This document shows, in pieces, positions 22,375-42,992 of a stretch of 64,000 nt of DNA. Source of the stretch: an uncultured Candidatus Micrarchaeota archaeon (GTDB lineage Archaea > Micrarchaeota > Micrarchaeia > Micrarchaeales > Micrarchaeaceae). Below the pieces are notes generated by a model. The model saw only the letters and a program-made list of their open reading frames with translations, made no database searches and was not told the origin of the DNA. Every line of letters begins with the position of its first letter. The stretch's first letter is position 1. The stretch lies in the NCBI GenBank assembly GCA_963760035.1, contig CAVXBR010000011.1:365-64364 (forward strand). The letters run 5' to 3'. Made by a program: the position numbers and the translations under genes.

Positions 22375-22378
22375 TATT

Positions 22379-25632: not shown

Positions 25633-25663
25633 TTCATCCCTTGGAGATATTATGAATCCAAAG

Positions 25664-25779: not shown

Positions 25780-25968
25780 ATGCCGGATCTCGAAAGACGC
25801 ATCGTCGTCTATCTAGACGATGAACTGTCGAAATGGCTGGATGGAAAAGCCCAGGAGGGCTACAAGAAGGCGGCATTCGTGAGGCGCCTGATGGAGAGAC
25901 AGTGGAAGCATGAGAAGGTCGTCCTGGAGCAAGGTCAGCGAGGGCTGGAGACGGGTGTCGCATCATGA
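25780..25968 (+). CDS. ribbon-helix-helix (CopG-like) protein
   Basis: RRIVVYLDDELSKWLDGKAQEGYKKAAFVRRLME fits the RHH pattern. The ATG at 25780 is preferred over the GTG at 25771. ATGA overlap with the next ORF. Confidence 0.45.
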   Translation: MPDLERRIVVYLDDELSKWLDGKAQEGYKKAAFVRRLMERQWKHEKVVLEQGQRGLETGVAS

Positions 25969-26246
25969 AGGAGCTCGGAGCAGCTGGCCAACCCGCGGGC
26001 GCCACAGGCCCGGTACCGGACTCGGAGGTGGAGGCGTTCGCCGATGCGATAGTCTTCTATCTCGAGCACCCGGAAGCGATCCATGACGAGTTTCTGAAGG
26101 CGTTCATGGACGGCGCGAGGATCCGGGTGGAGCGGCTGGTGAAGGAGCAGGATGCAGTAGAGGAGGCGGCGAAAGCCGCCCCTCCCTCTATCTCATTTAT
26201 GCTAAATTGCATTATCAAATTTGGGTTATGTTTGGTGGGAATATGA
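25965..26246 (+). CDS. hypothetical protein
   Basis: Translationally coupled on both sides (ATGA at 25965 and 26243). Confidence 0.3.
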   Translation: MKELGAAGQPAGATGPVPDSEVEAFADAIVFYLEHPEAIHDEFLKAFMDGARIRVERLVKEQDAVEEAAKAAPPSISFMLNCIIKFGLCLVGI

Positions 26247-28426: not shown

Positions 28427-28435
28427 GATGGAGCG

Positions 28436-29546
28436 CTATCGCCAGTCTGCGTCGTCCTGTTTGAGGATGATCTGGTTGAACCGTGAGATAACTCTTTTGC
28501 GAAAGATGTAGGTATCTGCGAATTTGGCGTAGGTCAACCAACCTTCTAGACGTATAAGTCCTTCCGATGATGTTATTTTGTTTTCATTATATCCTTGCCT
28601 GAATTTTTCTAACCGTTTCCAGATCCGTTTCGAGTTGCTCTTCTTCAGTAGCTTGTAGTCACGGAAAACCCTAAATCCCAAAAAGGTGATACCGTGTCCC
28701 AGTTCCATGACTTGAGATTTTTCGGGGTGCAGATCCAGTTTTAGACTGGAGTTAAGGAACTTGTTTATTTCGCCTTTCCATTTTCTGAGGGTGTACTCAT
28801 CCTCGTGAAGTATCACGAAATCGTCGACATATCTGATGTAATACTTGGCCTTTAATTTGTGCTTAACGAAAAGGTCCAGTTCGTGCAGATATACATTTGC
28901 AAAAAACTGAGATGTTAGATTGCCTATCGGCATTCCCTTCCCCGAGGTCTCGGTTTTGTGGTTTTCTATTATCTTTTTTATTAACCAGATGACATTGCTA
29001 TCTTTTATTTTCCGACAGATTAGACGCATTAGCATTTTATGGTCTACGGTGTCGAAGTAGTGGCGTACGTCTGCCTTGAGTACATAGCAGGTATGTCCTT
29101 TGCCCTCTGAAAATTTACGTTGCCCCCCCCCCCAGCAATACAGGTGTTTTATGTGCAGAGCACACTTTTCTCATGAACTCCTCGAACCTCTTTATCGCTT
29201 TATGTGTTCCCTTACCCTTCTGGTTGGCGAAGGAGTCATGGATAAACTCTTTCTCCAAGATTGGGCTTATGATATTGCATAATGCGTGATGTATGACACG
29301 GTCTCTGAAATGAGACGCGCTTATTGTCCTTGTCTTGGGATCCCTTATTACAAATGTGGTTAGTGGCGCCGGAGAGTATGTGAATGTTTCCAATTCCAGT
29401 TTAAGCTGTTTGAGGTTTGCATCGAGATTCGCCTCAAACTCGATCACATAATTCCTGCGGGTCTTCCCCTTCCTTGCCTTCTTGTGGGCCAATTCTAGGT
29501 TTTCGTAAGAGCAGAGCTTTGAATATAGGTTGTTGTATGTCTTCAT
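28436..29546 (-). CDS. diversity-generating retroelement reverse transcriptase, interrupted by a 1-nt frameshift in a G11 run as sequenced
   Basis: ORFs 29115..29684 and 28436..29035 join through a third frame (..GGGQRKFSEGKGHTCYVLKADVRHYFDTVDHKMLM..) if one G of the run is removed. RT motifs present: ADVRHYFDTVDH, the DGR-typical PIGNLTSQFFANVYL ([I/L/V]GxxxSQ), RYVDDFVIL (YxDD) and ITFLGFRV. The start is taken at MKTYNNLY (29546), downstream of the TR. Confidence 0.85.
29123..29133 (-). repeat. homopolymeric G11 (C11 on the + strand) tract inside the RT gene
   Basis: Counted from tgcccccccc cccagc. Removing one G restores a single 369-codon RT frame. Confidence 0.9.
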
Positions 29547-29581
29547 GCTATTACCATGAATCCTGGGTGTGTAAGTAAGGG

Positions 29582-29681
29582 CCATTGGGGCGACATTGTT
29601 AGGCTCGTTGTTCGCATTGAGGTTGAAACGCCTTCCGTAGTTCGAGGCGTTGTTATCCGAGTGGACGTTCAGCGACAACGG
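29582..29681 (-). repeat. DGR template repeat (TR)
   Basis: About 100 bp, homologous to 30030-30129 and 30713-30812. It lies immediately 5' of the RT start. The coding-strand reading is full of AAC codons (PLSLNVHSDNNASNYGRRFNLNANNEPNNVAP). Confidence 0.9.
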
Positions 29682-29830
29682 CACAGTGTAACCGGTCTAC
29701 TGCCCCTGAGGGCTAAACGGCAGCTTCACGATTTCGGCTGTTGCTTACTCAGTGTCGCTGCTTGATCTCATGACTGGCATGTTCGTGACCTACCAGCGCT
29801 ATAGACAGGTGTGTGGTCCTCGGCTTACAC

Positions 29831-29849
29831 CCGCGAGCCTTTCTCGCGG
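29831..29849. other. GC-rich hairpin in the TR-to-target spacer
   Basis: CCGCGAG-ccttt-CTCGCGG, a perfect 7-bp stem with a 5-nt loop. Confidence 0.4.
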
Positions 29850-29908
29850 TTTGCAGGGTTTTCCCCATGCAAGCCCAGGTAGAAGTAGTTTTTATTGCGG
29901 GTTTATAT

Positions 29909-30520
29909 CTACGTTGGTCTTAGCAACCGTTCGAGCTCTGTTATTTTTGCTCCCAAATTGTCGGCGGCCTCCTCTATTTTTCTAAGCAATACGTCTACAG
30001 CTTCTGCTGGCTGCTTGGCTCGGCCCACCACCACCGGGGCGACATCGTAAGGCACGATGCACGCAAAGAGGCCGAAACGCCCCCCGCAGAGCGAGGCGAC
30101 GTCACCCGAGCGGACGCCCAGCGACAACGGGTTTTCGCCATTCCATACACGAACGGTCATTTCTACTGGTGTGCTTTCTGCTTTTTTGACAAGCTCGCCC
30201 TTCTTGTTTATCTTGTATAAATCGAGTTTCTTATTCATTCCTTTTCCTGCCAGGTAGAACCATTTATCCTTCAATGATTCCTTGAGCTTATCGTCCTTTG
30301 TTAGGATGCTAAGCGCCTCTTGGTATGTAAGGAACGTTAGTTGTGCTTTCTCAAGCATACCTTTTGAGGCAGGATAATCCGCCTTTCTTTCTGACATGTA
30401 TAGTGTGACCCCTGTGCTGCTCGTCACTTCCTTGAATCCGAGCAGCTTTCTCCTTGTTTCCTTTATTGTGGCGGTCGCCGTGCTTCCGGACGCTTTCTTA
30501 GATGAGGTTGTACTGGCCAT
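29909..30520 (-). CDS. DGR target (variable) protein 1, probable C-type-lectin/DUF1566-like fold
   Basis: 203 aa. VR1 covers residues about 131-164 (PLSLGVRSGDVASLCGGRFGLFACIVPYDVAPVV). Paralogue of the next gene. The LTYQEALSIL and KWFYLAG segments resemble the DUF1566 pattern (inference). Confidence 0.8.
   Translation of the reverse strand: MASTTSSKKASGSTATATIKETRRKLLGFKEVTSSTGVTLYMSERKADYPASKGMLEKAQLTFLTYQEALSILTKDDKLKESLKDKWFYLAGKGMNKKLDLYKINKKGELVKKAESTPVEMTVRVWNGENPLSLGVRSGDVASLCGGRFGLFACIVPYDVAPVVVGRAKQPAEAVDVLLRKIEEAADNLGAKITELERLLRPT
30022..30034 (-). other. IMH-like GC-rich element at the 3' end of VR1 (coding strand GGTGGTGGTGGGC)
   Basis: An identical 13-mer follows VR2 (30705-30717). 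The TR counterpart (AATGGCCCTTACT) diverges beyond the first five bases. Confidence 0.5.
30030..30129 (-). repeat. DGR variable repeat 1 (VR1)
   Basis: In the 95-bp core (30035-30129 vs 29587-29681) there are 22 mismatches, all at TR adenines (T on the + strand). Confidence 0.9.
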
Positions 30521-30530
30521 AGTATCACTA

Positions 30531-31172
30531 TTAGTTTAGCACTCTCAACAGCTCCTTCAGCGGGGCAGTTGTTCCCGCGACCAAAGCCCCAGCCTGCTCA
30601 GCTGCCTCAACATTTGCAACGCTCGCTTCTACACTTGCACGTAGTTCCGGCGCTATTTTTGGCGCTGTCTCTGGCTTCAGTTCAAGCTTGAAATCCTTGG
30701 CTACGCCCACCACCACCGGGGCGACAGCGTTAGGCCCGAGGTTCGCATAGAGGTAGAAACGCCCCCCGTAGCCCGAGGCGCCGCCATCCGAGCGGACGAA
30801 CAGCGACAACGGGTTCGTGCCTTTCCAAACGTTAACCCTCTCTTCGAGGGACACTTTGTCTGCACCGTCAACAAGCTCTCCCATGTAGTTTATTGTGAAT
30901 AATCCGCCCTTTTCCATTCCCACGCCTGCCACGTAGAACCATTTTCCTTTCAGCGCATTCTTTAGCGCTTCGTCCCTCATCAGTAGAGGCAGCGCCTCCT
31001 GGCGCGCGAGAGGCCTTAGGTTGGCGTCCTCAAGCGTCTTCATAGAATTAGCATGATTGGCTCCTTTATCCGACACGAACAGGGCAACTCCGGTGTTGCC
31101 GGTTATTTGCTTGAACCCCTGCCTTGTTGCGGTTGCTTGCACTGACTCCTTCATTGTCGCAGTCGTCATCAT
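30531..31172 (-). CDS. DGR target (variable) protein 2, paralogue of target 1
   Basis: Start moved to MMTTATMKES (31172) by analogy with target 1. VR2 encodes PLSLFVRSDGGASGYGGRFYLYANLGPNAVAPVV. Confidence 0.8.
   Translation of the reverse strand: MMTTATMKESVQATATRQGFKQITGNTGVALFVSDKGANHANSMKTLEDANLRPLARQEALPLLMRDEALKNALKGKWFYVAGVGMEKGGLFTINYMGELVDGADKVSLEERVNVWKGTNPLSLFVRSDGGASGYGGRFYLYANLGPNAVAPVVVGVAKDFKLELKPETAPKIAPELRASVEASVANVEAAEQAGALVAGTTAPLKELLRVLN
30705..30717 (-). other. IMH-like GC-rich element at the 3' end of VR2
   Basis: Same 13-mer as 30022-30034. Confidence 0.5.
30713..30812 (-). repeat. DGR variable repeat 2 (VR2)
   Basis: In the 95-bp core (30718-30812 vs 29587-29681) there are 18 mismatches, all at TR adenines. 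Confidence 0.9.
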
Positions 31173-31278
31173 TATCACTGTAAAACTAGCGTCGGGTATA
31201 ATATAAATACATTGCGATGAGGCGCCTCCAGCGCGCCGAACCATAACAGATATATCACAGTTCCGCCAAAATAGTATC

Positions 31279-32604
31279 ATGGGCCTTCAAAACCTATTCC
31301 TGGGCGGTGGCAACGGAATAGACATGAACAAGGAGTTCCGCGGAGCGCTCAACCAAATGGAGAATTCACAGGACAACATCTTCATAACCGGGAGGGCAGG
31401 TACAGGAAAATCCACCCTCCTTGAATATTTTAGGTCCGTAACGAAGAAGAACGTCGCTGTCCTCGCACCCACCGGCGTTGCCGCGCTCAACGTCAAGGGC
31501 CAGACGATCCATTCCTTCTTCCACTTCAAGCCTGATATCACCCTTGAGACTGTAAGGAGGGCATACGGCCCCGCGATGTACAAGAACATCGATGCGATCG
31601 TGATAGACGAGATATCGATGGTCCGCGCCGACCTGCTCGACTGCGTTGACAAATTCATGAGGCTGAACGGGAGGAACTCCGAGCTCCCGTTCGGAGGGGC
31701 ACAGATGATCCTGATAGGCGACCTCTACCAGCTTCCGCCGGTGGTCACGAACACGGAAGAGGAGATATTTAGGACTCACTACAAAAGCCCCTACTTCTTC
31801 GACTCACACTCATTTTCCGGTCTCCAGATGAAATACATAGAGCTCAAGAAGCACTACCGCCAGAAGGAACAAGAATTCATAGACCTCCTCAACGCGATAC
31901 GGAACAACTCCATCACCGACCAGCAGATAAGGCAGCTCAACTCACGCGCTGGCATGTCGTTCGTGCCCAAGCCCGGCGAGCACTACGTCACCCTCACGCC
32001 GACCAACAGGCTCGCGGATCAGATAAACAGCGAACGCCTATCGCAGATCAAGAGGCAGACACGCAGCTTCAAGGCCCACATAAGCATCGACTTCGACAAG
32101 CGTGTCCACCCGGCCCCGGACAGGCTGGAGCTGAAGGAAGGAGCGCAGGTGATGATGCTCAACAACGACCGGCACAGGAGATGGGTCAACGGAAGCATGG
32201 GCGAGGTCGTGGAGATGGAGGGTCCTGCGGGCTGGGAGGGCGTGATAACGGTCAGGCTCATAGACGGCTTCGACGTGAAGGTGGAGCCGCACACCTGGGA
32301 CCTCTTCCGTTTCTCCTATGACATCCCAAGCAGGAAGCTTGTCAGCAACAACGTCGGCAGCTTCAGCCAGTATCCGATGATGCTCGCCTGGGCCGTCACG
32401 ATCCACAAGAGCCAGGGCAAGACCTTCGACCGCGTGGTCATTGACCTGGGATCCGGCACATTCGCGCACGGCCAGCTCTACGTTGCCTTGAGCAGATGCA
32501 CGACAATGTCTGGGGTGGTGCTGAAGAGGCCGGTGCAGAGGGAGCACATCATGATGGATGGCAGGGTTGTTGAGTTCCTGAGCAAACGCGTAAAGACGGA
32601 TTAA
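31279..32604 (+). CDS. PIF1/RecD-like superfamily-1 DNA helicase (AAA_30 + UvrD_C-like)
   Basis: Walker A GRAGTGKST, Walker B IVIDEISMV, GDLYQLPPV, AWAVTIHKSQGKTFD, YVALSRC. An alternative start is possible at 31324 (MNKEF). Confidence 0.8.
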   Translation: MGLQNLFLGGGNGIDMNKEFRGALNQMENSQDNIFITGRAGTGKSTLLEYFRSVTKKNVAVLAPTGVAALNVKGQTIHSFFHFKPDITLETVRRAYGPAMYKNIDAIVIDEISMVRADLLDCVDKFMRLNGRNSELPFGGAQMILIGDLYQLPPVVTNTEEEIFRTHYKSPYFFDSHSFSGLQMKYIELKKHYRQKEQEFIDLLNAIRNNSITDQQIRQLNSRAGMSFVPKPGEHYVTLTPTNRLADQINSERLSQIKRQTRSFKAHISIDFDKRVHPAPDRLELKEGAQVMMLNNDRHRRWVNGSMGEVVEMEGPAGWEGVITVRLIDGFDVKVEPHTWDLFRFSYDIPSRKLVSNNVGSFSQYPMMLAWAVTIHKSQGKTFDRVVIDLGSGTFAHGQLYVALSRCTTMSGVVLKRPVQREHIMMDGRVVEFLSKRVKTD

Positions 32605-32610
32605 GCCGAA

Positions 32611-32658
32611 CCGCAGGCACGAGAAGCCCACGCGAAGCGTGCTGGCTTCGAGCTGCGG
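32611..32658. other. extended imperfect hairpin directly after the helicase stop codon
   Basis: CCGCAG-gcacga-GAAGCC-CACGC-gaa-GCGTG-ct-GGCTTC-gag-CTGCGG, with 17 paired positions by eye. Confidence 0.4.
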
Positions 32659-33027
32659 TGAGGCTAGCAGTCGTGGTCTGCCTTCTTATAATTTATCTGG
32701 TGGAGCAAGCTCGACTTAAGCGGCGACGCGCTTAAACCCATGCAGATAAATTCGGAGGAGAGGGCGATGGCGCTGGTTCTGGTGATGGGAATGCCGGTGG
32801 TGGTGCCGGTGCTAGGGCTCATGCTGTTGGCGATGGAGCTTGGACAGGAGGAGGTGGGGTTGGTGGTGAGGGTTAGGCTTAAGCCAGCAGGGCTTAGCGC
32901 CCCTCGCAGCCCGGCTCCGCAAATCGCCAGGGGGCTCGGGGCGCCCGGCTTGGCAGCAGCGTAGATGCTCAAACAGTACTTCTTTGGCTTGGAACTATGT
33001 GGTTATTCCTAAATCTTCTTACAAATT

Positions 33028-33113
33028 CAAGTGTAGTGGTTTCACGAGGTGACTACACATAGAGCTAGACGACAATGCTACACATCGGTCAGGCGTAGTG
33101 GCAAGTGTAGTAG
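33028..33113. repeat. cluster of five GTGTAGT(G/A)G / CTACACAT octamer sites
   Basis: caaGTGTAGTGG 33028-33039, CTACACAT 33053-33060 and 33078-33085, GCGTAGTGG 33093-33101, caaGTGTAGTAG 33102-33113. Lies upstream of the gene starting at 33156. Confidence 0.45.
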
Positions 33114-33155
33114 GGCAAATTATTAAAGCCGGAACTGTCCTTGGATGTTGAGATT

Positions 33156-33599
33156 ATGAAAGTGCTGTTCTTATGCAAAGCGAATGCGGAACGCAGCCAG
33201 ATGGCCGAGACATTCTTCAACTCTCTGTCCAGGAGGAACAAGGCGTTCAGTGCTGGGATTGTGGCAGATAAGAGACATATCGGGTGGCCACCAGGTAGGA
33301 TAGTAACAGAGCTCATGCTAAGCCTAGGTTATAATGAATTCGAGAAAGGTAAACAAAAGCAGTTGACAGAGAAGATGGCCAAGAAAGCCAACATGATTGT
33401 AGTCCTCTTATCAAAAAGCGGGCGGAGGAAGTATGTGCCTGAATACATTAAAAGGTGTAATGATGTGTTATATTGGGATGTCGGCCACTATCCACGTAGC
33501 TTGATGGCTTCGTTTCCTCCAATCACGTATAAGTACCATATCGCTATGTTATTGAAAACAAAAGCGAAGGTTGAGAGGCTTGTCAAGAAAATTGGCTAG
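33156..33599 (+). CDS. low-molecular-weight phosphotyrosine phosphatase / ArsC-family protein
   Basis: N-terminal VLFLCKANAERSQMAE contains the CX5R(S) P-loop. ATG at 33156 preferred over TTG at 33141. Confidence 0.6.
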   Translation: MKVLFLCKANAERSQMAETFFNSLSRRNKAFSAGIVADKRHIGWPPGRIVTELMLSLGYNEFEKGKQKQLTEKMAKKANMIVVLLSKSGRRKYVPEYIKRCNDVLYWDVGHYPRSLMASFPPITYKYHIAMLLKTKAKVERLVKKIG

Positions 33600-33670
33600 C
33601 GTATAGTTATATTTACTGTTGTTTGACGCCGTATAACAGTGAAAGCGAAACGCTTTTTACGACGACAGTT

Positions 33671-33682
33671 CGCCGAGTCCAT
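33671..33682. repeat. candidate attR: exact 12-bp copy of the tRNA-Ala 3' end
   Basis: CGCCGAGTCCAT is identical to 21095-21106. Lies in the intergenic gap between the phosphatase and vapC genes. Confidence 0.4.
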
Positions 33683-33700
33683 ATCTGTTACCGTTAGTGG

Positions 33701-34141
33701 TTAATATGTTGTTATTTGTCTAAGGGGGTTTGTTACTTTTATCCCGGGAATCTTATTAAAGTCTCTTTCGTTCTCGGTAATTATTTCGGTTATTCCGTTT
33801 TCTTTCATCGTCTCTGATATTAAGGTATCAAGAAATGGTGTTTTAAATTCTTCTGAATTTTTAAGGGCCCTGTCTAAGGTCTCACAATCGTAATTTATTT
33901 TCTTCCAGTTCTGGGATAGAATTAAAGACCTAACAATTATCACTGCTTTATTTGATGGAACATCTAATTTTCGCGTAAGTGAATTAAAAAGCTCTACGAG
34001 AACTTGATTTGACACTACACCGATTATCTCACCGTCTAAAACACGTTGGAATAGTCCCCCACATATCATTCTTTTTTGCCGTTCCGTAAAATCATGTGCA
34101 TAACAGATTATGTTTGTATCAAAGAATAGTTCATCTTTCAT
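33701..34141 (-). CDS. vapC: PIN-domain ribonuclease toxin (VapC-like)
   Basis: FFDTNIICYA (first acidic residue), a conserved E in SNQVLVELFN, and FLDTLI...TENERDF at the C-terminus. Start at MKDELFF overlaps the upstream gene by 11 nt. Confidence 0.65.
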   Translation of the reverse strand: MKDELFFDTNIICYAHDFTERQKRMICGGLFQRVLDGEIIGVVSNQVLVELFNSLTRKLDVPSNKAVIIVRSLILSQNWKKINYDCETLDRALKNSEEFKTPFLDTLISETMKENGITEIITENERDFNKIPGIKVTNPLRQITTY

Positions 34142-34364
34142 ATAATTCACCACGATCAAACTTCCATTTCTTCATCTTTATACCGCTTTTAAACAGTTTT
34201 AATGCTTCGATTTGTACGTCCGAGTCACTTTTTTGCACCCATTCTTTCATTGCTTCTGTAATTGCTTTCCCAAGATAACCTTTCTTTTGCCCATACTTTT
34301 TACTGGCTTGCTTTCTAAATTCGGATGCTACTTGTTCTTCAACATTAATGGTAATCGTTTTCAT
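34131..34364 (-). CDS. vapB: putative antitoxin (VapB-like)
   Basis: 77-aa ORF immediately upstream of and overlapping the PIN gene. TATTTAAAT box 28-37 nt upstream. Confidence 0.45.
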   Translation of the reverse strand: MKTITINVEEQVASEFRKQASKKYGQKKGYLGKAITEAMKEWVQKSDSDVQIEALKLFKSGIKMKKWKFDRGELYER

Positions 34365-34391
34365 TTGATCATATTTATTTAGATAATATAA

Positions 34392-34401
34392 ATATTTAAA
34401 T
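34392..34401 (-). promoter_or_regulatory. TATA box (ATATTTAAAT) for the vapBC pair
   Basis: Position relative to the ATG at 34364 implies a leaderless or near-leaderless mRNA. Confidence 0.45.
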
Positions 34402-34424
34402 CTTTGGTTAATATAAATTATTAT

Positions 34425-36641
34425 TTAGGTATAATCAGGCATTTCAAGAAGTTTATTTTTGTCTACAAATAAATTTAGCCTCTTTTTACCAGAAATTGAT
34501 GTTTCTGCAATAACCTTCCTCTTTTCGTCAATAAGGCAAAGTAGGTATTTTCGTTCTAGGACGAGATGCAGTTTGTAATCTTCTTTCACTGGTATTAGTT
34601 CGTTGATTACCTCCCCAAGAAATCTAAACTCGATATTAAATCTCGAACCGATAAAACCGTCTCCAAACGTCAATTTTAATTCTGTATTTATGAACTCATT
34701 AGAAACGTGTTCCGACTTTATAAAAGGAGGGATAGGAGGCTGCAGGAATGCTTCCGTCTTTATAAAGACGCTCTCTTCTTGTATCTTTTCGCTTCCTTTG
34801 CGTGTAATAAAGCTTAGCGCTCCTACCCTTGAATCAAGAAGCTTGAGTTTTTCTATTACCTTATCTATCTCTATGCCCGGAAATATGAGTTCCTTCGCTG
34901 CTAAATAAGCTGAATCTGGCGCCTGTTTGAGGTACAGTCTGGTTTGACATAGGCGCCTTATTCCTAAATCTATGTCGTTTATGTTATGGGCAAGTAACAT
35001 TAGGCCTATACCTCTCTTTCTAAAATCTTGTATCCGCTGCTTCAGATCTTCAACCGCTGGAGAATCTTCTTCTTTGAATATTATCTGCGCTTCTTCCACG
35101 CAGATAAGCATCCTTAACTTGTCATCACCAAACGTGTCAAAACCTGATGCAATGGCGTAAATCTGGTTTAGCACAAGGGCATAAAGGAATGATCTTGTTG
35201 CAATGCTGGTAGATGAAACATCAAATACCGCACCGCCGACTAGCAACTCTTCAAATTTTACACCGTCTTTCATAGAATAGTTAGGATTGTTTAATATTAT
35301 CCTCAAACTTTCTAACGCCGCCTTTATGTTTTCGCCGTGTTTTGTATACTTAACACCTGTATTTGTTCGTTTACCGTGTAGACAGATTATTGATTCTTCT
35401 ATTTCATCGTAAACATCGATCGGATTAGGGGTTGAGGTAGTTTGGTATATCTTCCTAAATGCATTTAGCATACATTTTTCCATGGGCCTTTTGTAGGGTC
35501 CAGCGCCAGATGCAGACGAAAGGATTATTGCCAGATCCTGGCAAAATTTTTCCCTTTTCGTGTTAGTTGGACACCTAAAGAAGTTTATTGCAATCGAATC
35601 GGAAAAGAGTTTTATCAGATTCATACCGTGAGAGATTGCAAAGCCGTTCCATTCTTCTGTGGGGGCAAGAATAAACAATGGGCAACAACCAGAGTTAATT
35701 ATCCTATCAGATAAGTGCATGGCTTCCATAGTTTTTCCCGAACCAGGCAAACCAGTGATAAGGAAACCCAAGTTAAAGGATGCTGGTTCCACACATATAT
35801 CGGTCTGGCTTTCGGATACTCCATCGTTCATCAATTTTCCTATAGGTATGCCATTTGAGGTATGCCCGGTTGGGTTTAATTTTATAGTTCTCAGCACTCT
35901 TGCTCCATAGAGCTTAATGAATTGGGCGCAATACTTGGTTCCAAACGGGAAAGAACGGATTTTGGATATTTTAGGCATGATTGAGCTAAAGCCTTCTGCA
36001 ATAAACTCAGTTTCGGAAAGATTAGAGACTCTATCGTTTAGATAGGTTTTCATATTCTTTGCATCTAAACTGTACAATAAGAACATTTTGTAGAGTAAAT
36101 TGTTCTTAAGGAGAGCCTCGTTTATGGAATCAAGTATATTTTTCGCTATTAGAAGTTCGTCGGAGTCTTTGTAAAGATCCCTATGAACTGACGATGGACC
36201 AAAAAGTCCACGGATGCCCTGAGAGGTTGATTTTGTCTCACGCATGTCCTTTGAGCTTAGGAGGGATTCGGCATATCGTTTTGCAAATTCGATTTCTTTT
36301 TCTTTAACGGTTATAAAGGCTAGGCATAGAAAATTTTCTGATAGATCAGCGGCAAATAGGTCGTGAAAGGCATCATTGTCTTCTTCACTAATTCGGTAAA
36401 ATGAAAGCGCCTTGAGTTTACGTCCTTTTAAATTTTCGAAATCGCCGACTTTTTCAGAAACAAATCCAGGTATTGAGGAACTTAGGGAGTATATCAGCTC
36501 GTCTTTTTCATCATCAATCCAGAGGAGGGTTCGGTGCAGTTTGGTGTCGTATATAATAGCAAAATTGTTCCTGCCCAGCGTTTCGAAAAAGTGCTCTGAC
36601 TCAAATAGGTCAGGAACACTCAAAACTGCAAAAAATCCCAT
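34425..36641 (-). CDS. large HerA/VirB4/TraG-like P-loop ATPase (DUF87-like)
   Basis: Walker A GLPGSGKTM, Walker B MLICVEEAQIIF, KRGIGLMLLAHN motif. 738 aa with no TM helix. Confidence 0.65.
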   Translation of the reverse strand: MGFFAVLSVPDLFESEHFFETLGRNNFAIIYDTKLHRTLLWIDDEKDELIYSLSSSIPGFVSEKVGDFENLKGRKLKALSFYRISEEDNDAFHDLFAADLSENFLCLAFITVKEKEIEFAKRYAESLLSSKDMRETKSTSQGIRGLFGPSSVHRDLYKDSDELLIAKNILDSINEALLKNNLLYKMFLLYSLDAKNMKTYLNDRVSNLSETEFIAEGFSSIMPKISKIRSFPFGTKYCAQFIKLYGARVLRTIKLNPTGHTSNGIPIGKLMNDGVSESQTDICVEPASFNLGFLITGLPGSGKTMEAMHLSDRIINSGCCPLFILAPTEEWNGFAISHGMNLIKLFSDSIAINFFRCPTNTKREKFCQDLAIILSSASGAGPYKRPMEKCMLNAFRKIYQTTSTPNPIDVYDEIEESIICLHGKRTNTGVKYTKHGENIKAALESLRIILNNPNYSMKDGVKFEELLVGGAVFDVSSTSIATRSFLYALVLNQIYAIASGFDTFGDDKLRMLICVEEAQIIFKEEDSPAVEDLKQRIQDFRKRGIGLMLLAHNINDIDLGIRRLCQTRLYLKQAPDSAYLAAKELIFPGIEIDKVIEKLKLLDSRVGALSFITRKGSEKIQEESVFIKTEAFLQPPIPPFIKSEHVSNEFINTELKLTFGDGFIGSRFNIEFRFLGEVINELIPVKEDYKLHLVLERKYLLCLIDEKRKVIAETSISGKKRLNLFVDKNKLLEMPDYT

Positions 36642-36642
36642 A

Positions 36643-36750
36643 TTATATCACACCAACTACAATTATGAAAACCAGCAAAGCAACAAAGATGGATAGAAGT
36701 ATAAATGGCCTTGATCTGAAGCTATGAAATTCTTTTATATTCTTTAACAT
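36643..36750 (-). CDS. 35-aa single-TM micro-protein (below the ORF-track cutoff)
   Basis: Hand translation: MLKNIKEFHSFRSRPFILLSIFVALLVFIIVVGVI*. Its ATG overlaps the upstream stop (ATGTTAA), and its stop lies 1 nt before the next ATG. Confidence 0.35.
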   Translation of the reverse strand: MLKNIKEFHSFRSRPFILLSIFVALLVFIIVVGVI

Positions 36751-37760
36751 GTAGTCACTTTGAGTAGGTTATTTAGTTTCATTACCAGTAGGCCAGCACC
36801 AAATTTCGAATAAGTCCTAAGCAGTCTCGATAGAGCATGCTCCTCTTCTTTGCCAAATAAAATGAGGTTTATTTTCTGCTCTTTCTGTTTTCTATCTGGA
36901 TATCCTGAATCAAAAAGATCGGACCAGAATACGATATTGTTTGAATGGATGAACGCATCAGTAGTTTTTGATTTCAGGGATATTGAAGAACCTGAGAGAA
37001 CTACGTTCTCATAGAAGATCCTTGCTCCAATAATCCGTTTTGTCAGGGGCGAGCAACCCACGCAATTGAATAAAACATGGCCTATCCCTAAGACCTCCAT
37101 CTTTTTTGAGGCGTATTCGTCATCTTTTTGGATCTTTTTCAGTCCTTCAATTTCATTAAGGGAAGAGAGTTCTGCTAAAATGTCGGATATCTTTTCTGGT
37201 AGATTTGCTACGGCTCTTTTGTTCTTGTAAGCTAAAGAATCAAAAGCGGATTTCAACTGCATGACACCAGTAGGGGCTATGGTTTCTTCGTTAAAATGGA
37301 AAATTTGTTTGTTTCTGTTTGAAGAATCTAAGGCAATAAGTTTTATTAGGAAAAAGAAGATGGCCCCGAGAGGAACAAGGAGGATGTAGAGCATTCCACC
37401 CATATAGAAAAAGCTCACCGAAGATTCAGAATTACCGTATTTCACGTTTATTAGGTTAATTCCAAGGTTTAATGGTGCTTGGAACTGAAGGTTGGACCCT
37501 TCGGTTGTGGTTAGGATGCTTTTATACCTGTCATTTATTGTGATAAGAAGCTTGGCCTCAGGTAATTTGCGCTCATCGTAGCTTATTGCCGTTGTGATGG
37601 CATAGTTGCCTTTCGATGTGAAATTAGAGATGCAAAGATTTGTGCATTTTGTGGATTTGTATAAGCCCAAAAAGAGGAACAGAATTAAAAGCAGGATGCC
37701 GGCGAGGAGTAGTAGGGATATGTTTCTTTGCTGGTACCCTTCTCCAATCGCCTGACTCAT
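36744..37760 (-). CDS. hypothetical membrane protein of the transfer operon
   Basis: N-terminal TM helix (ISLLLLAGILLLILFLFLGL) and a second TM helix mid-protein. 4-nt overlap with the upstream ORF. Confidence 0.4.
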   Translation of the reverse strand: MSQAIGEGYQQRNISLLLLAGILLLILFLFLGLYKSTKCTNLCISNFTSKGNYAITTAISYDERKLPEAKLLITINDRYKSILTTTEGSNLQFQAPLNLGINLINVKYGNSESSVSFFYMGGMLYILLVPLGAIFFFLIKLIALDSSNRNKQIFHFNEETIAPTGVMQLKSAFDSLAYKNKRAVANLPEKISDILAELSSLNEIEGLKKIQKDDEYASKKMEVLGIGHVLFNCVGCSPLTKRIIGARIFYENVVLSGSSISLKSKTTDAFIHSNNIVFWSDLFDSGYPDRKQKEQKINLILFGKEEEHALSRLLRTYSKFGAGLLVMKLNNLLKVTTC

Positions 37761-38422
37761 TTTGTCACCGTTTTTTCGAAAATGAAAGCTGTGGCCGCTT
37801 TATACGCTTCTGTGGTAGTTCCGATTATCTTGGGAAGGGACTCGGCGGTAGGGTCTTTTAGTGCCATCTTGGTCATTGCAGCGGCTATGGCGTCTTTTGA
37901 GAATTTTTTCAGGCACTCGTTTTCCAGTTCAAGATCTTTGCATTTGCGCTGGAACTCCAGAGTTTTAAAAGATAATGAACAGTTCATCGCTGAAAGGGTT
38001 TTCACTTTTCTGATTAGTAGCTCGCTGTTTTCTATTTTCCCTTCAGTGTAGGGTATCTCTTCCATGTATTCAACAAGCGCTTCCATAAAGCTAGGATAAA
38101 GTGATGACAGTTCGGGATCATAGAAATCTGCCGAATAGGCCAAGATAGAGAGGAATTTTATGAGATTTTTAGCGTATTCTTTCGCCGAGCATCTGTTGAA
38201 GCAGTAGTTAAAGGTCAGTCTATTTCCCGTTACTTGCAGTTCGGAAGTGCTGACGCCATCCGACTCAATTATTGAGAAGGTCCTGTTATCGCCTGCCTTA
38301 GTCATGCGAAGGAATGGAGCAGATTGGAGATGGGTGTAAAATTGGGCTATTTGAACCTTAAACTTGCCGCTCACAAAGAAAGACGATTTAAGCCCAAATT
38401 CGAGCTTTTTAGGCGCTTTCAT
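37757..38422 (-). CDS. hypothetical soluble protein of the transfer operon
   Basis: 221-aa ORF overlapping both neighbours. Confidence 0.4.
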   Translation of the reverse strand: MKAPKKLEFGLKSSFFVSGKFKVQIAQFYTHLQSAPFLRMTKAGDNRTFSIIESDGVSTSELQVTGNRLTFNYCFNRCSAKEYAKNLIKFLSILAYSADFYDPELSSLYPSFMEALVEYMEEIPYTEGKIENSELLIRKVKTLSAMNCSLSFKTLEFQRKCKDLELENECLKKFSKDAIAAAMTKMALKDPTAESLPKIIGTTTEAYKAATAFIFEKTVTK

Positions 38423-39740
38423 AGGCGTTCACTATGGTTAGATCGTCTATCCCTAACTGGCGTAGATAGCATACGACAGAAACCCGGTCAAGGCCGATTT
38501 CGGTAAGAAATCGGACAAATGAGGAAATTTCTATATTCTTCCCGTTTTGGATGGAAAATGATATTATCCGTTCTTTTAGGTCCGGATCATGGAAAGATCC
38601 GGTGATGTCAAGGAACCTTTTTTGGCTGATTTGACGTCTCATATTTTCACCTGAAAAATGCAAGTTACCGAACTCCATGCCAGATATTCTTTCCATATAG
38701 AACTTTGACGGAGAGGTAGGGTTACTCTTGTATGCAAGACATAACATGCAGCTACCAATCCCCAAGGAGCAGAGCACGCTCTTGGTATTTGGCTCTATAA
38801 GTCCGGCATTTTCAAGTATTCCGTAGTCCCTTTCGTTCTGAAGCCGAAATATGGCCAAGCATCCCACGTTTGCCATTATCTCGTTGTTTATGTCTGAGGC
38901 AAGCTGGGTCGCGGATATCACAGAGATCCCATATTTCCTGCCTTCTCGGTACAACGTGCCGACCTCGTCCGAGTTCTTAAGGAGGCGCCATGCCTCATCA
39001 AGCACAAGTATACGTTGGATACCACAACCGATCTTCATCTTATGCATGCAGTCTATTACAAGTTTTAATATGAACTTGACTAGCTCACCTCTCTGGGAGC
39101 TGTCCCTAAGGGTTGAAAGGTTTATACTGTAGATTCCGTCCAGCACTTTACCCATATCAAACTCCGTTCTGTCTGCAAAAAATGGGTTGCCTTCTAGCTG
39201 GAGTAGCTTGTTTGACAATAACAGATCTTTGGTCTTGATTTTTGATATTAAAACCCTTAGATTTTTGGGTCCGTTCCCGCCAAAAAGTTCTAATAGGTGG
39301 CTGTGAAGTTCTGACTTTTGGCCTTCTTCGAGCTCTATCATGCTGTCCATTAGCTCGGTTATGTTTGAGATGCCGCTTGGTACGCTGTATACGTCCATGA
39401 TGTTTATTTTGAAGTCCCTGCCGAAGCTAAGAATTTGGCCAGATAAAAATTCGATCAACTCCCTATACTCATCATTCCAGTCTATGGTAAGTACCTTGGA
39501 ATTACGGTGAAGAACGCTCTTTGCTACAACGCTTTTGAGCATGTAGCTTTTTCCGGCTCCCGATATTCCTATTATTGCCATGTGGGGATTTATCAGGACC
39601 GAGCTGTCAAGGTAGAAGGGTAGTTTGTATATCGCAGTTTTGCCCAGGTAAACTCCGGAAGTGGTCGCTGAGACGGGTTCGGACATCTTGTAGATGGATA
39701 TGGCACCCGCAACGGATTGGGAGTTTGGACTTATTTCCAT
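38409..39740 (-). CDS. VirB4/CedB/HerA-like ATPase
   Basis: Walker A GISGAGKSY, Walker B ILVLDEAWRLL, GRKYGISVISATQ motif. Same architecture as the ATPase core of 26243..28426. Confidence 0.7.
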   Translation of the reverse strand: MEISPNSQSVAGAISIYKMSEPVSATTSGVYLGKTAIYKLPFYLDSSVLINPHMAIIGISGAGKSYMLKSVVAKSVLHRNSKVLTIDWNDEYRELIEFLSGQILSFGRDFKINIMDVYSVPSGISNITELMDSMIELEEGQKSELHSHLLELFGGNGPKNLRVLISKIKTKDLLLSNKLLQLEGNPFFADRTEFDMGKVLDGIYSINLSTLRDSSQRGELVKFILKLVIDCMHKMKIGCGIQRILVLDEAWRLLKNSDEVGTLYREGRKYGISVISATQLASDINNEIMANVGCLAIFRLQNERDYGILENAGLIEPNTKSVLCSLGIGSCMLCLAYKSNPTSPSKFYMERISGMEFGNLHFSGENMRRQISQKRFLDITGSFHDPDLKERIISFSIQNGKNIEISSFVRFLTEIGLDRVSVVCYLRQLGIDDLTIVNAYESA

Positions 39741-39744
39741 GGTT

Positions 39745-40464
39745 TCAACCCATTAGGTCTGATTTTATCACTGAAATGAGATCCGTGCCGCTCAGGACTT
39801 CGAACCCGGCTCCCAGGACGGCGGAAAACTCGCCGGAGATCTCTTTAATCTGTGAAAGTGCCCGCTCCTGTGCAGCGAATCTGGATTCAGAGGAGGCAAA
39901 AGTCATTAGATATATGTTGGTCTTGAGGGGCACTGCACCAGTGCCTATTGATTTTATCTCGCTTTCTATTAGTTCGATCTCCCTTTCGACAACCTTACTG
40001 GAATCCGTGCCCTTTTTTGCCCTGGTTTTTGATAGCTCCAGTTCCTTCATCCTCCTCCTTGTTTTTAGGTCGTCGGTGATCTTGCCCGTGTTAAGTCTCT
40101 CTACTTGAACCACGAACCTAAACGGGGAATTTGAGCTTGAGATTATCCGCTCTATGTTCTCCCTGTTTATTTCCTTTGTAGGAAAACTCCGCAGAGCAGC
40201 CGCAGAAACCGCGGAGAACAGCAATCCTTTTTTCCTGATAGCAGAAACCCTGTCAGCTTCAAGCTCGTAATCTCCAATTATCTGAACAACTCCGGTTTTC
40301 TTTATTATTAGGGATTCAAATATGTCCCATAGCTTATAAAGAAAGAATAGTGATAGGGAAACGGAAATCGATAGGATAGTCAGGTAGAGATTTAGAGATA
40401 AAATGCTGGCTAGTGATGCTACTACTGCAATGGCGATTATCACGTATGCAATCATGTCGGGCAT
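39745..40464 (-). CDS. membrane protein with two N-terminal TM helices and a cytoplasmic domain (possible VirB3/VirB4 N-terminal-domain equivalent)
   Basis: Two TM helices followed by about 170 soluble residues. Ends 4 nt before the ATPase gene. Confidence 0.4.
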   Translation of the reverse strand: MPDMIAYVIIAIAVVASLASILSLNLYLTILSISVSLSLFFLYKLWDIFESLIIKKTGVVQIIGDYELEADRVSAIRKKGLLFSAVSAAALRSFPTKEINRENIERIISSSNSPFRFVVQVERLNTGKITDDLKTRRRMKELELSKTRAKKGTDSSKVVEREIELIESEIKSIGTGAVPLKTNIYLMTFASSESRFAAQERALSQIKEISGEFSAVLGAGFEVLSGTDLISVIKSDLMG

Positions 40465-40471
40465 TTGACCA

Positions 40472-41512
40472 CTATATTATGCTCATCCTGCTTAGGTTCA
40501 CTTCGGATCCTAGGATTCTGGAAAGTTCGCGTATGGATACTATTGTTAATACTATGCTGAAAGCGGGCATTACAAACGCCTGGACTACTATTATGCCAAC
40601 AAAGGCTGCAAGGCCAGAAAGGAACTGCTGGACTCCGCCTACGAATCCCGAAATCAGGTTGGTGATATAGTTGGAAACGCCGGTTGAGTTGGCTGCACCC
40701 TTTTGGTAGCTTGAGACCTCGTTTAGAAGATTGCCCTGCAGGCCGGTGGCGTTTGATATAGCAGTGTTTACGGACGAGGGATTGAATGAGGTAGCATAGG
40801 TGCTGATAATGGTTGCATCAAGCGCATAGGTCATTGGCAGAACCGCAAATAGCCCTATGGTTATGGCCAATATCGCTCCTCCGAGCTTTCTAGTGAAGAA
40901 GAGGCACCTCAGGGTTATTCCAATCGGCATCAGTATTGACATGGCACTGACAGATATGACCATCAGTAGAATGCCCTGTATTTCGATGCTCATCAGGGCC
41001 ACGGTCAAAGCGTCTATGGCATAGCCTAAGGCAGTGAGTATTGGCTTCATCGAGCCTGACAATCCCAGACTTATTGGCCCCAGGTTGAAGCTCATAGAAT
41101 TGACTAGGCTAAGCGCGGTGTACATTCCCGCCAGCGGAACAAGCAGAGTTATGGTGGAGTCGAAGACCGTTGGGTAGGAAGCATTGTATACATCTACTTG
41201 GTTTACCCCGACGAGATAGTTGTAGGCAAAGCATAGCGCTGAGTTGTATTTCATCTGCGAAGGACAGGAGTATCCCTGCGCTACGTTGTTGGTGGCCCCA
41301 TTTAGGGCGATTGAGACAATCCCGTTGGTGCTGAAAACAGCAATTAGTACGCCGAGGATGACCCCGTTTATTATCGCGGTGTAAAGCTCTGTTTTTGCCA
41401 GATCCTTTAGTTTTCTGTCATCCAGTGCATATCCCAGTCCTAGGAGTATCCCCCCAACGGAGATTGTTATCGCTATCAGCGCCAATGCTATGCTGTAGCC
41501 TATTGCTTCCAA
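40472..41512 (-). CDS. polytopic membrane protein (VirB6/CedA-like candidate)
   Basis: At least 7 hydrophobic helices over 346 aa. Positioned between the pilin-like and ATPase genes. Confidence 0.45.
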   Translation of the reverse strand: MEAIGYSIALALIAITISVGGILLGLGYALDDRKLKDLAKTELYTAIINGVILGVLIAVFSTNGIVSIALNGATNNVAQGYSCPSQMKYNSALCFAYNYLVGVNQVDVYNASYPTVFDSTITLLVPLAGMYTALSLVNSMSFNLGPISLGLSGSMKPILTALGYAIDALTVALMSIEIQGILLMVISVSAMSILMPIGITLRCLFFTRKLGGAILAITIGLFAVLPMTYALDATIISTYATSFNPSSVNTAISNATGLQGNLLNEVSSYQKGAANSTGVSNYITNLISGFVGGVQQFLSGLAAFVGIIVVQAFVMPAFSIVLTIVSIRELSRILGSEVNLSRMSII

Positions 41513-41522
41513 TCAAATCCCC

Positions 41523-41921
41523 TCAGGTCAGACTATTTGCTGCTGTGAAGTTCGTCAGGAGATTGGTGGATGAAAGCGCAAGGGAGCTGGAGGCAAAACT
41601 CAGGGCAGCGACAACAACTGCACCTATTATTATGTTTATGGCCGCAGCCTGGAAATGCGCCTTCTTATCGGGCGGGAGCATCTGGCCTATCGCATAGAAG
41701 ATCCCAGCTACTATGAAGAGCATTGCGCTGAGTGCCGGACCCAGCTGTCCAAGGACAGTTTTCACCTGGTTGAGGTCGGAAAGGACCTGTGCGCCGGCCG
41801 CATAGTTCAGCCTTGCATAAGTAGTGAGCCCCAAAAGAAGCAGGAGCAGATACTTTAGCATAGGCACGGTATGCAACTTCACTTTCGACGCAACTCGTTG
41901 TTTATTCATATACCCACCCAT
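41523..41921 (-). CDS. small two-helix membrane protein (VirB2/TrbC/CedA1-like pilin candidate)
   Basis: Signal-like N-terminus (LLLLLLGLTTYARLNYAAGA), then two hydrophobic helices joined by a basic loop (PPDKKAH). First gene of the operon. Confidence 0.4.
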   Translation of the reverse strand: MGGYMNKQRVASKVKLHTVPMLKYLLLLLLGLTTYARLNYAAGAQVLSDLNQVKTVLGQLGPALSAMLFIVAGIFYAIGQMLPPDKKAHFQAAAINIIIGAVVVAALSFASSSLALSSTNLLTNFTAANSLT

Positions 41922-41953
41922 TTACTTTGGTATATGAAGTTATACTGAAATAA

Positions 41954-41965
41954 GTATTTAAATAC
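41954..41965 (-). promoter_or_regulatory. TATA box (GTATTTAAATAC) for the transfer operon
   Basis: Lies 33-44 nt upstream of the ATG at 41921. Confidence 0.45.
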
Positions 41966-41993
41966 TTCGGTTCTAGTGGGATAAGCAGGCCAT

Positions 41994-42992
41994 TCAGATT
42001 ATTTGCAGAGCTAAGAAAATACCGAGAGCAACAACGATGCCAAATAGCAGGAACGGTATCGCCGGCAGAGGCCGCTTGTACTTCTTCAGCACGTACATAG
42101 TCAGGCAGAGTCCGAGCAGTGATCCTAAAACCACCACGAAGCTCAGCCTGAAGTTCAGGTGAACCGTATAGGCGGAGATGGCCAGCATCAGGGGGGCCAT
42201 CAGGTCTCCTGTACCCAATCCAGTCCTTGCGGAGAGCGGCACCATTCCACTCGAGACCACCGCCTTCGTGAGGGGACCTCTCGATGAGATCTCCTTCTTT
42301 GCCTTGAGATAATCGCTGCGTTCCTTGTGGCTCAATGAGCTGAGCGGCACCGCCTCTATCTCGTTGGCCATTATCATCAATGAAAGATTGTTGTTCACGG
42401 CCGCGTTGGCAAGCGCGATCATGTGCTTCGTTATGAAGACCGCTATGAAGTCGTAGACAGCTAGGAGGACCATGAAAACGAATGCGAACCAGAAGGGCAC
42501 CGACAGCCCCAGTGCGAGTCCCGCGCCCACGCTGGCTATCATTGCTGTAACATTCCGCAGCCTCGGCAGCTTCAGCTTTGCGGCCGTCAGCAGCAGCGCG
42601 CAGGCGGCAGCAAGAAGAAACGCCCCCAGGGACGGGCCGCTCCCCAGTATCATGTTAAAGGCGTGGCCGGTGAATGAGCCTATCACCAGCAGGAAGAAGA
42701 TAAATGAGGCGAAGCCCACTATCCAGACCTCCAATAGGAGGAAGAGCTTGTCAGTCTTGAGGAACCTGAATGCGAGGGTCAGTATTATCGAGAATACCGC
42801 AATCGCCACTATGATCGATATGACGTAGCCTATGCCTCCCGATAAGATAGAGCCTATCTGGAGGGTCGTAACTTGCGAGAAGTTCACCCCTGAAAAGACC
42901 TGTGTGGCGATCAGCAGTCCGAGGAACTGCACGATCAGGAACATTGATATTATGTAGAGGAGCTGCCTTGCCTCGATCACATTCGTTGCCAA
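41994..42992 (-). CDS. presenilin/signal-peptide-peptidase-like intramembrane aspartyl protease (A22 family)
   Basis: Polytopic, with catalytic YD (LAVYDFIAVF) and GxGD (GLGTGDLM) motifs and a C-terminal PAL-like PAI. Confidence 0.7.
   Translation of the reverse strand: MATNVIEARQLLYIISMFLIVQFLGLLIATQVFSGVNFSQVTTLQIGSILSGGIGYVISIIVAIAVFSIILTLAFRFLKTDKLFLLLEVWIVGFASFIFFLLVIGSFTGHAFNMILGSGPSLGAFLLAAACALLLTAAKLKLPRLRNVTAMIASVGAGLALGLSVPFWFAFVFMVLLAVYDFIAVFITKHMIALANAAVNNNLSLMIMANEIEAVPLSSLSHKERSDYLKAKKEISSRGPLTKAVVSSGMVPLSARTGLGTGDLMAPLMLAISAYTVHLNFRLSFVVVLGSLLGLCLTMYVLKKYKRPLPAIPFLLFGIVVALGIFLALQII

Follow-up and report, generated by a model that had tools for sequence, protein, structure and literature searches.

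The stretch of DNA analysed here (the window: 64,000 nucleotides (nt), positions 365 to 64,364 of contig CAVXBR010000011.1 from an uncultured Candidatus Micrarchaeota archaeon) carries a minus-strand operon of eight genes, designated g1 to g8, whose products are labelled only 'hypothetical' or 'ATP-binding protein' in the public record. The best reading of this operon is that of a domesticated, relaxase-less derivative of a type IV secretion system (T4SS), characteristic of the Micrarchaeota among the DPANN archaea and functionally like the Ced and Ted systems. The probability that it encodes a T4SS-derived pilus or translocation apparatus, chromosomal and not mobile, was estimated to be about 0.75. 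A first-pass annotation of the same DNA had likened the gene set to a minimal VirB2/VirB6/VirB4 core of the Ced/Ted type, and this resemblance held overall, although homology of the VirB6 part was not demonstrated.

Organization of the operon

All eight minus-strand open reading frames (ORFs) between 41921 and 34425 were confirmed in the ORF list. They are tightly packed, as had been described, with junctions that are either gaps of 10, 7, 4 and 1 nt or overlaps of 14, 4 and 7 nt. The features are as follows, in coordinates of the window and with product lengths in amino acids (aa).

41955..41964, minus strand: TATA-box-like element TATTTAAATA
41523..41921, minus strand: g1, 132 aa, putative VirB2/TrbC-type T4SS pilin precursor
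40472..41512, minus strand: g2, 346 aa, polytopic membrane protein, candidate channel or platform subunit
39745..40464, minus strand: g3, 239 aa, two N-terminal transmembrane helices and an alpha/beta cytoplasmic domain, VirB4-domain fold
38409..39740, minus strand: g4, 443 aa, VirB4/CedB/HerA-type P-loop ATPase core
37757..38422, minus strand: g5, 221 aa, soluble protein with a coiled-coil-like middle, accessory component
36744..37760, minus strand: g6, 338 aa, membrane protein with two transmembrane helices and a C-terminal domain of ~190 aa, accessory component
36643..36750, minus strand: g7, 35 aa, micro-protein with a single transmembrane helix
34425..36641, minus strand: g8, 738 aa, soluble second ATPase with a HerA/VirB4-type core

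By hydropathy, two hydrophobic helices were counted in g1 after the leader and 5–7 in g2; transmembrane helices numbered two at the N-terminus of g3, two in g6 and one in g7, with none in g4, g5 and g8.

Relatives were collected by scanning one genome per GTDB species with the g4 alignment. This gave 355 stretches with relatives, of which the best 80 loci are almost all from Micrarchaeota metagenome-assembled genomes; loci were then fetched for comparison. The two closest relatives are referred to as L001, which lies on a 535-kb contig and has a g4 69% identical to that of the window, and L008.

The TATA-box-like element was read directly, with CCGAAG (resembling a B recognition element) just before it. 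Its core TTTAAATA was identical in L001 and L008 by alignment, and most of the 72-nt spacer was likewise conserved, so that TATTTAAATA is likely the operon promoter that the first-pass annotation had placed there. A sigma-70 promoter and terminator scan was uninformative, the host being an archaeon. The ATG at 41921 is replaced by AAG in L008, and the ATG at 41909, which is conserved as the invariant Met of the g1 family, is preceded at 4–9 nt by GGTGGG; for these reasons the true start of g1 is probably at 41909, with a predicted product of 128 aa.

The putative pilin g1

Family-level searches supported g1 as a VirB2/TrbC-type T4SS pilin. It was found that 36 of the 37 members of the g1 family matched T4SS_pilin (PF18895, best E 1.2e-7) and 22 of the 37 matched TrbC/VirB2 (PF04956, best E 4.9e-7), whereas the other Pfam families were matched by just one or two members. 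Hydropathy and alignment indicated a signal-peptide-like N-terminus followed by two hydrophobic helices with a basic connecting loop, GQMLPPDKK. The leader of the family is basic and hydrophobic and ends in a small-residue motif, the core GPALSA-LF--AGIFYAIGQMLPPDKKA-FH--A-NIIIGA is nearly invariant, and an N-x-T sequon is conserved at the C-terminus. The pilin-like topology proposed earlier for this product thus gained Pfam support at the family level, the window protein itself scoring below the cut-off. Conservation within the operon is highest for g1, at 90% identity to its L001 orthologue (Pelota, for comparison, 89%).

A gene for a signal-peptide peptidase (41994-42992, minus strand; PF06550 in the L001 orthologue) precedes the pilin gene by 72 nt on the same strand. 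This arrangement was seen only in the window, L001 and L008, and the peptidase may conceivably be connected with maturation of the pilin leader.

The g3 and g4 pair as a putative split VirB4

The AlphaFold model of g3 had a predicted local distance difference test (pLDDT) score of 81. The top 11 Foldseek matches of this model in the PDB were all TrwK/VirB4 of R388 (E 5e-4 to 1.3e-2, probability 0.99–1.00, TMq 0.36–0.40, ~170 columns), the next match being at E 0.33, and HerA chains were absent from the 50 matches listed. In every locus where g3 was detected (68 fetched loci) it lay directly upstream of g4, which in the window begins 4 nt after it.

For g4, the Pfam models DUF87, AAA_10 and TraG P-loop were all matched above cut-off, and the best NCBIfam matches were CedD (2e-20) and CedB (2e-19), followed by VirB4-like families. 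These alignments covered only positions 221–512 of 527 in CedD, 239–535 of 590 in CedB and 437–682 of 792 in the VirB4-like model. Because this is the C-terminal ATPase part, the N-terminal part of CedB, CedD and VirB4-like proteins has no counterpart in g4. The scores of 72.9 bits against CedD (cut-off 600) and 69.5 bits against CedB (cut-off 700) were about a tenth of the equivalog cut-offs, so that g4 is related to CedB and CedD without being their orthologue. At the family level, 20 of 20 members matched both CedB (best 4e-32) and the VirB4-like family CD1110 (1e-26), HerA models were matched at ~1e-16, and the Walker A and B residues were invariant. A tblastn search of 72,556 plasmids with g4 returned TraC proteins as the best relatives, and 127 of the 191 matching plasmids were conjugative.

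Taken together, g3 and g4 look like a VirB4 that has been split at the gene level into a membrane-anchored half and an ATPase half. Since g3 contains no P-loop, corresponds roughly in size to the portion that g4 lacks and always stands directly before it, g3 would supply the membrane anchor and a module like the VirB4 N-terminal domain. The pair had been annotated as a split VirB3-VirB4. The VirB4/CedB-type ATPase with a membrane-anchored partner was borne out; the VirB3 identity was not, since the soluble domain of g3 matches the VirB4 fold itself.

Beyond the ATPase core, g4 has a conserved C-terminal extension of ~100 aa (window 38409-38700) with near-invariant R419, L426, R427, L429 and G430, for which no family match was found. 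In some relatives g4 is only 365–395 aa long and seemingly lacks this extension.

The second ATPase g8

The core of g8 spans approximately residues 258–628, and no family could be assigned to the N-terminal ~257 and C-terminal ~110 residues. By hhalign, the g8 family matched the g4 family with a probability of 95% (E 2.6e-8, 325 columns), in agreement with the earlier claim of a second ATPase of the same superfamily; g8 is a distant paralogue of g4. Weak Pfam matches were obtained to Zot (19 of 28 family members), HerA_C (7 of 28) and also DUF87, and the Walker motifs were invariant in the family. We regard g8 as a candidate substrate motor.

Pfam and NCBIfam scans of the proteins revealed no relaxase, so that the absence of a recognisable relaxase reported earlier was upheld. 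Among the eight operon products, the same two libraries revealed no integrase and no VirD4-type coupling protein. A TrwB/TraG-type match above noise was not obtained for any operon product, g8 being VirB4/HerA-like and not VirD4-like.

The membrane protein g2 and accessory components

The AlphaFold model of g2 (pLDDT 77) showed long helices and a small beta element, and hydropathy and the model together gave 5–7 hydrophobic helices. Foldseek found no significant match for it in the PDB or BFVD. Of all matches listed, TrwI/VirB6 (7o3v_F) had the best TM-scores (0.30/0.36), but it ranked 30th, at E 0.76. No sequence match was found in Pfam, NCBIfam or the PDB, and Pfam searches with 38 members of the g2 family and 52 distant relatives likewise yielded no family. 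A profile search against 1.84 billion representative proteins (50% clustering) revealed a large superfamily, with 2241 relatives at E≤1e-3 and 826 at E≤1e-10. Some of its members are 450–1327 aa long, and the named ones are Micrarchaeia proteins labelled 'hypothetical protein'. The first-pass annotation had described g2 as VirB6/CedA-like with at least 7 transmembrane helices. Its size, position and polytopic nature agreed with this, while the helix count did not clearly reach 7 and homology searches gave no significant match. We retain g2 as a candidate platform, in the position and of the size of VirB6, CedA or TedA.

For g5 there was no Pfam or NCBIfam match and the PDB matches were of coiled-coil type only; g6, with transmembrane helices at approximately residues 10–40 and 114–147 by hydropathy, had no family or PDB match. 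Both evolve fast, showing 43–48% identity where Pelota shows 89%. Single-transmembrane counterparts of g7 occur at the same place in L001 (40 aa) and L008 (35 aa), and in distant relatives a ~62-aa protein with two transmembrane helices and a ~100-aa protein with three occupy this position instead.

Conservation and chromosomal context

Hundreds of g4 homologues were found, and the named ones were nearly all from Candidatus Micrarchaeota. By BLASTP of the window proteins against the ORFs of the fetched loci, the order g1-g2-g3-g4 was observed in at least 38 species representatives, at g4 identities of 27–69%. Because the same gene order recurs so widely, the arrangement is far beyond chance. 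Among the fetched loci, g5 was detected in 34, where it keeps its place in the gene order, g6 in 16 and g8 in 31 (27 distinct species representatives). In a wider family with ~525-aa ATPases at ~27% identity, the g3-g4 pair was kept, sometimes together with g2 and g1 but without g8.

The neighbours of the operon are alike in the window, L001 and L008, with Pelota and the signal-peptide peptidase upstream and tRNA-Ala(CGC), RtcB and an ammonium transporter (Amt) downstream. The GC content of the operon is 42.9% against 50–53% in the flanks, a deficit of 6–10 points that is common to these three loci. Across 24 species, the GC content of the cluster ranged from 20 to 58% and tracked that of the flanks, from which it differed on average by -1.9 points. 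In IMG/VR only one weak partial match was found, implying that the family is essentially absent from viral contigs. From the collinearity across species, the synteny in L001 and L008, the GC content that follows the host and the near-empty IMG/VR search, it was concluded that the operon is an old, vertically inherited chromosomal locus and not a recently acquired island. The view of the region as an AT-rich mobile island was accordingly abandoned, the lower GC content being no evidence of an island. A viral origin was also considered and judged unlikely, given the IMG/VR result and the fact that the PHROG matches of the operon proteins were to generic ATPase families only.

In some relatives, tRNA genes were seen inside the operon on the same strand (L003 9110-9201 and 11386-11477; L013 8042-8134; L016 8059-8136). 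These genes, for tRNA-Phe, tRNA-Ile and tRNA-Arg, lie between g1 and g2, g2 and g3 or g4 and g5; several are 92–93 nt long and may contain introns.

Comparison with known systems

The Ted system of Thermoproteales comprises the pilin TedC together with TedA and TedB (Beltran et al. 2023, PMC9905601). As described there, Ted is chromosomal and lacks a relaxase, as is the case here, and it combines a polytopic membrane protein with a VirB4-like ATPase. Its VirB2-like pilin has a cleavable N-terminal signal, which for g1 is suggested by the charged and hydrophobic N-terminus and the small-residue motif. Ted loci commonly contain a HerA-like ATPase (PMC9905601), which g8 would parallel. Unlike in Ted, the micrarchaeal VirB4 appears to be split into g3 and g4, the genes form a single tight operon with the additional g5, g6 and g7, no ParA/MinD or Rad50 neighbour was seen here, and the host belongs to the DPANN archaea and not to the Thermoproteota.

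The Ced system of Sulfolobales consists of CedA, CedA1, CedA2 and CedB, plus CedD and CedE (PMC11868833). Its two paralogous ATPases, CedB and CedD (PMC11868833), are paralleled by g4 and g8, and CedD and CedB are also the best NCBIfam matches of g4. Parts of the VirB4 N-terminal domain have structural homologues in the N-terminal domains of these two proteins (PMC11868833), and g3 matches VirB4. In both systems small transmembrane proteins stand beside one large polytopic protein. In contrast, the Ced genes are dispersed and the micrarchaeal genes lie in a single operon, and Ced pilins are reportedly secreted without processing (PMC9905601) whereas g1 has a signal-peptide-like leader. Matches to CedA, CedA1 and CedA2 were also missing: g1, g2, g6 and g7 were unmatched by any Ced component in Pfam or NCBIfam, libraries in which models for all three were not confirmed to be present, and the CedA1-like N-terminus of CedA was not reproduced for g1 and g2.

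Among bacteria, a T4SS without relaxase was reported in 2417 of 3035 Patescibacteria genomes (PMC12102498), and a 2025 review states that this system is required for epibiotic growth and speculates that it is a conduit for uptake from the host (PMC12857230). The likeness to this MPF-FATA-related system lies in its lineage-wide, chromosomal occurrence in ultra-small symbionts, its VirB2-like pilins and its mostly relaxase-less loci, and the best Pfam model of g1 is T4SS_pilin (PF18895). However, the bacterial system has a full-length VirB4 and recognisable VirB6, VirB3 and VirB8-type partners, while in Micrarchaeota VirB4 appears split and the partners are unrecognisable. Features shared with the bacterial VirB/Trw systems (R388, Ti plasmid) and the archaeal conjugative plasmids pNOB8 and pT33-3 are the VirB2/TrbC pilin matches of the g1 family, the match of g3 to the VirB4 fold and that of g4 to the VirB4/TraC ATPase core; unlike these, the micrarchaeal operon lacks VirD4, a relaxase, VirB8-11 and VirB1 and is not plasmid-borne. 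The VirB4-like domains in the giant SPEARE proteins of nanohaloarchaea have a different architecture.

The adjacent variable segment

In the window, 13.4 kb separate g8 from the tRNA-Ala (20960-34424), compared with 1.4–1.8 kb of unrelated small genes in L001 and L008. The following features were located at this site; DGR stands for diversity-generating retroelement and RT for reverse transcriptase.

21034-21105: tRNA-Ala(CGC), bordering the variable segment
21169-22374: tyrosine integrase, directly after the tRNA-Ala (PF00589, 7.6e-20)
26207-28426, plus strand: HerA/FtsK-type ATPase, 739 aa, with two N-terminal transmembrane helices at residues ~67-111, 23–25% identical to g4
28436-31280, minus strand: DGR, with an RT fragment at 28436-29035 (RVT_1, 6e-12) and the template repeat at 29582-29681
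30031-30130 and 30713-30812: DGR variable repeats, in two target ORFs
31279-32604, plus strand: Pif1-family helicase (PF05970, 5e-31), with no relaxase domain attached
33141-33599: ORF of 152 aa, inside the variable segment
33701-34159, minus strand: VapC PIN toxin (PIN E 1.3e-9, 39.1 bits against a cut-off of 23.6)
34131-34364, minus strand: VapB-like protein, 77 aa, 60 nt after g8, overlapping the start of the VapC gene, no family match

The DGR is bona fide; within the 100-nt core, template adenines are the positions at which the repeats differ. Since only the C-terminal half of the RVT_1 model is covered, the RT ORF may be frameshifted or mis-started. No family match was found for the neighbours of the ATPase at 26207-28426. 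The 13.4-kb segment is probably an integrated element; an att repeat derived from the tRNA-Ala and bounding the segment was searched for and none was found.

The genes at 33701-34364 are assigned, from the PIN domain above cut-off and the overlapping 77-aa ORF, as a VapBC toxin-antitoxin pair. The addiction module noted earlier behind the operon was in this way recovered, and it is not a conserved member of the operon, being missing at the same place in L001 and L008. The first-pass annotation had further grouped VapBC, the membrane ATPase and the DGR with the transfer genes. This grouping was not supported: all of them lie in the separate tRNA-Ala-adjacent segment with the integrase, which is absent from the syntenic L001 and L008. 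The third ATPase and the DGR, and probably VapBC as well, thus adjoin the operon by chance, through a variable site linked to a tRNA.

VapBC or PIN genes also abut the ends of the operon elsewhere (L003/L017 15671-16277; L010 6921-7569; L030 7104-7759; L018 5338-5586; window 33701-34364). Their presence in five lineages, with at least two unrelated families, may be a matter of chance, mark a site preferred for insertion or point to a functional link.

Proposed mechanism and alternative explanations

In the mechanism that we propose, a type I signal peptidase would remove the signal peptide of the g1 pre-pilin upon its export, after which the pilin would rest in the membrane as a helical hairpin. 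The g3-g4 ATPase, docked at the membrane beside the g2 platform, would extract g1 and polymerise it into a pilus or a short conduit, and g8 would act as a soluble hexameric motor which feeds or pulls the substrate. By analogy with Ced and Ted, and in view of the second HerA/FtsK-type motor, DNA exchanged with or imported from another cell is the favoured cargo, at somewhat less than even odds.

Several observations weigh against a T4SS origin or against parts of this picture. Five of the eight products (g2, g3, g5, g6 and g7) have no family by sequence search, and a structural match was found for g3 only. The window g1 itself scored below the gathering scores in Pfam (T4SS_pilin E 1.9e-4, TrbC 1e-3), and neither it nor its family profile matched a pilin sequence in the PDB. 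The PDB-chain profile searches with the g1, g2, g3, g5 and g6 families gave no pilin, VirB6, VirB3 or VirB4 match. The comparison of g3 with TrwK was negative at the sequence level, both for the family profile against PDB chains and by hhalign, and Foldseek did not report the region of TrwK that g3 matched; that this is the N-terminal domain is what we infer. No link of g2 to VirB6, CedA or TedA could be demonstrated by hidden Markov model (HMM), PDB sequence, Foldseek or hhalign searches, and a relation of g1 and g2 of the kind seen between CedA1 and the N-terminus of CedA was rejected at an hhalign probability of 3.4%. The hhalign comparisons of family profiles with single R388 proteins (TrwI 0.15%, TrwK 0.24%, TrwL 13.9%) are uninformative, single sequences being too weak. 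As regards the cargo, no DNA binding or processing domain was found in the operon products by Pfam or NCBIfam.

The ATPases pose a question of their own. The PADLOC HerA model scored 3.4e-20 on the window g4, level with CedD. With the g4 family profile, HerA-type PDB chains (1e-20 to 1e-16) came ahead of the C-terminal domain of Thermoanaerobacter VirB4 (4ag5, 8.5e-16), and TrwK was not matched among the PDB chains. The g8 profile also matched HerA-like PDB chains (2e-7), and g8 weakly matched the PADLOC model mad8. The ATPase core alone thus does not decide between HerA and VirB4, and for this reason the T4SS assignment rests on the pilin, the fold of g3 and the membrane-protein context. These HerA scores would suit a defence or DNA-repair module of HerA type, unrelated to T4SS and accompanied by membrane proteins by chance. 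But such a module would leave the T4SS pilin family and the VirB4-fold partner unexplained; searches of Pfam, NCBIfam and PADLOC gave no NurA, Sir2, nuclease or other effector partner and no HAS-barrel domain; and the lineage-wide conservation differs from the usual patchiness of defence islands, which makes this explanation very improbable.

Equally improbable is that an integrated conjugative plasmid or an integrative and conjugative element (ICE) lies here, with the operon as its transfer module and the neighbouring integrase, VapBC, Pif1 and third ATPase as further parts. The GC content of the operon does lie 6–10 points under that of its flanks in all three loci (window, L001 and L008), a tyrosine integrase at tRNA-Ala, a Pif1 helicase, a HerA/FtsK ATPase and VapBC all occur within 13 kb, and known archaeal conjugative plasmids likewise have no recognisable relaxase (PMC12857230). 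Nevertheless, the operon occupies the same chromosomal place, between Pelota and the signal-peptide peptidase on one side and tRNA-Ala and RtcB on the other, in L001 and L008, which lack the 13.4-kb integrase segment. With the gene order kept in at least 38 species, a GC content that tracks the host, no att repeat and one weak partial match in IMG/VR, the ICE explanation is largely refuted by synteny.

A serious alternative concerns the cargo and not the apparatus: the same T4SS-derived machinery may serve as a conduit between symbiont and host that takes up or delivers proteins, lipids, nucleotides or signals, an idea already put forward for the chromosomal T4SS of Patescibacteria, which lacks a relaxase. 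As DPANN archaea, the Micrarchaeota have small genomes and depend on hosts. Their system is lineage-wide and chromosomal, as is that of the Patescibacteria. The operon lacks a recognised DNA-processing domain, and the fast evolution of g5 and g6 is what would be expected of partner-facing parts. On the other side, the nearest characterised archaeal relatives by HMM, CedB and CedD, move DNA, a second FtsK/HerA-type motor such as g8 is typical of nucleic-acid translocation, and the operon has neither effector-like nor adhesin genes linked to it. On this balance, a non-DNA conduit is considered rather unlikely, though far less so than the ICE and HerA-module explanations.

Significance

The domesticated T4SS derivative preferred here has, in the open-access literature and bioRxiv, no described counterpart in Micrarchaeota or other DPANN archaea that we could find; an earlier mention elsewhere is possible. 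For the acquisition of DNA, nucleotides and other building blocks from the host by DPANN archaea, itself still an open question, an envelope apparatus dedicated to the task has yet to be named. A lineage-wide, chromosomally fixed T4SS derivative provides a concrete candidate apparatus with eight defined genes, and it would extend domesticated conjugation machinery beyond the Thermoproteota. For the evolution of T4SS it is also relevant that the anchor and the motor of VirB4 appear to reside in separate genes, and that the g2 superfamily, with its 2241 or more unannotated membrane proteins, is tied to T4SS-like machinery. We suggest, as a speculative proposal that we hold to be doubtful, that conjugation machinery was domesticated independently in Archaea a third time, following Ced and Ted, in a form fixed across Micrarchaeota with a VirB4 divided between two genes and a second HerA-like motor, and that it gives these host-dependent DPANN cells a conduit for importing host DNA or other macromolecules. 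If this is true, the operon would correspond, among Archaea, to the T4SS on which Patescibacteria rely for epibiotic growth.

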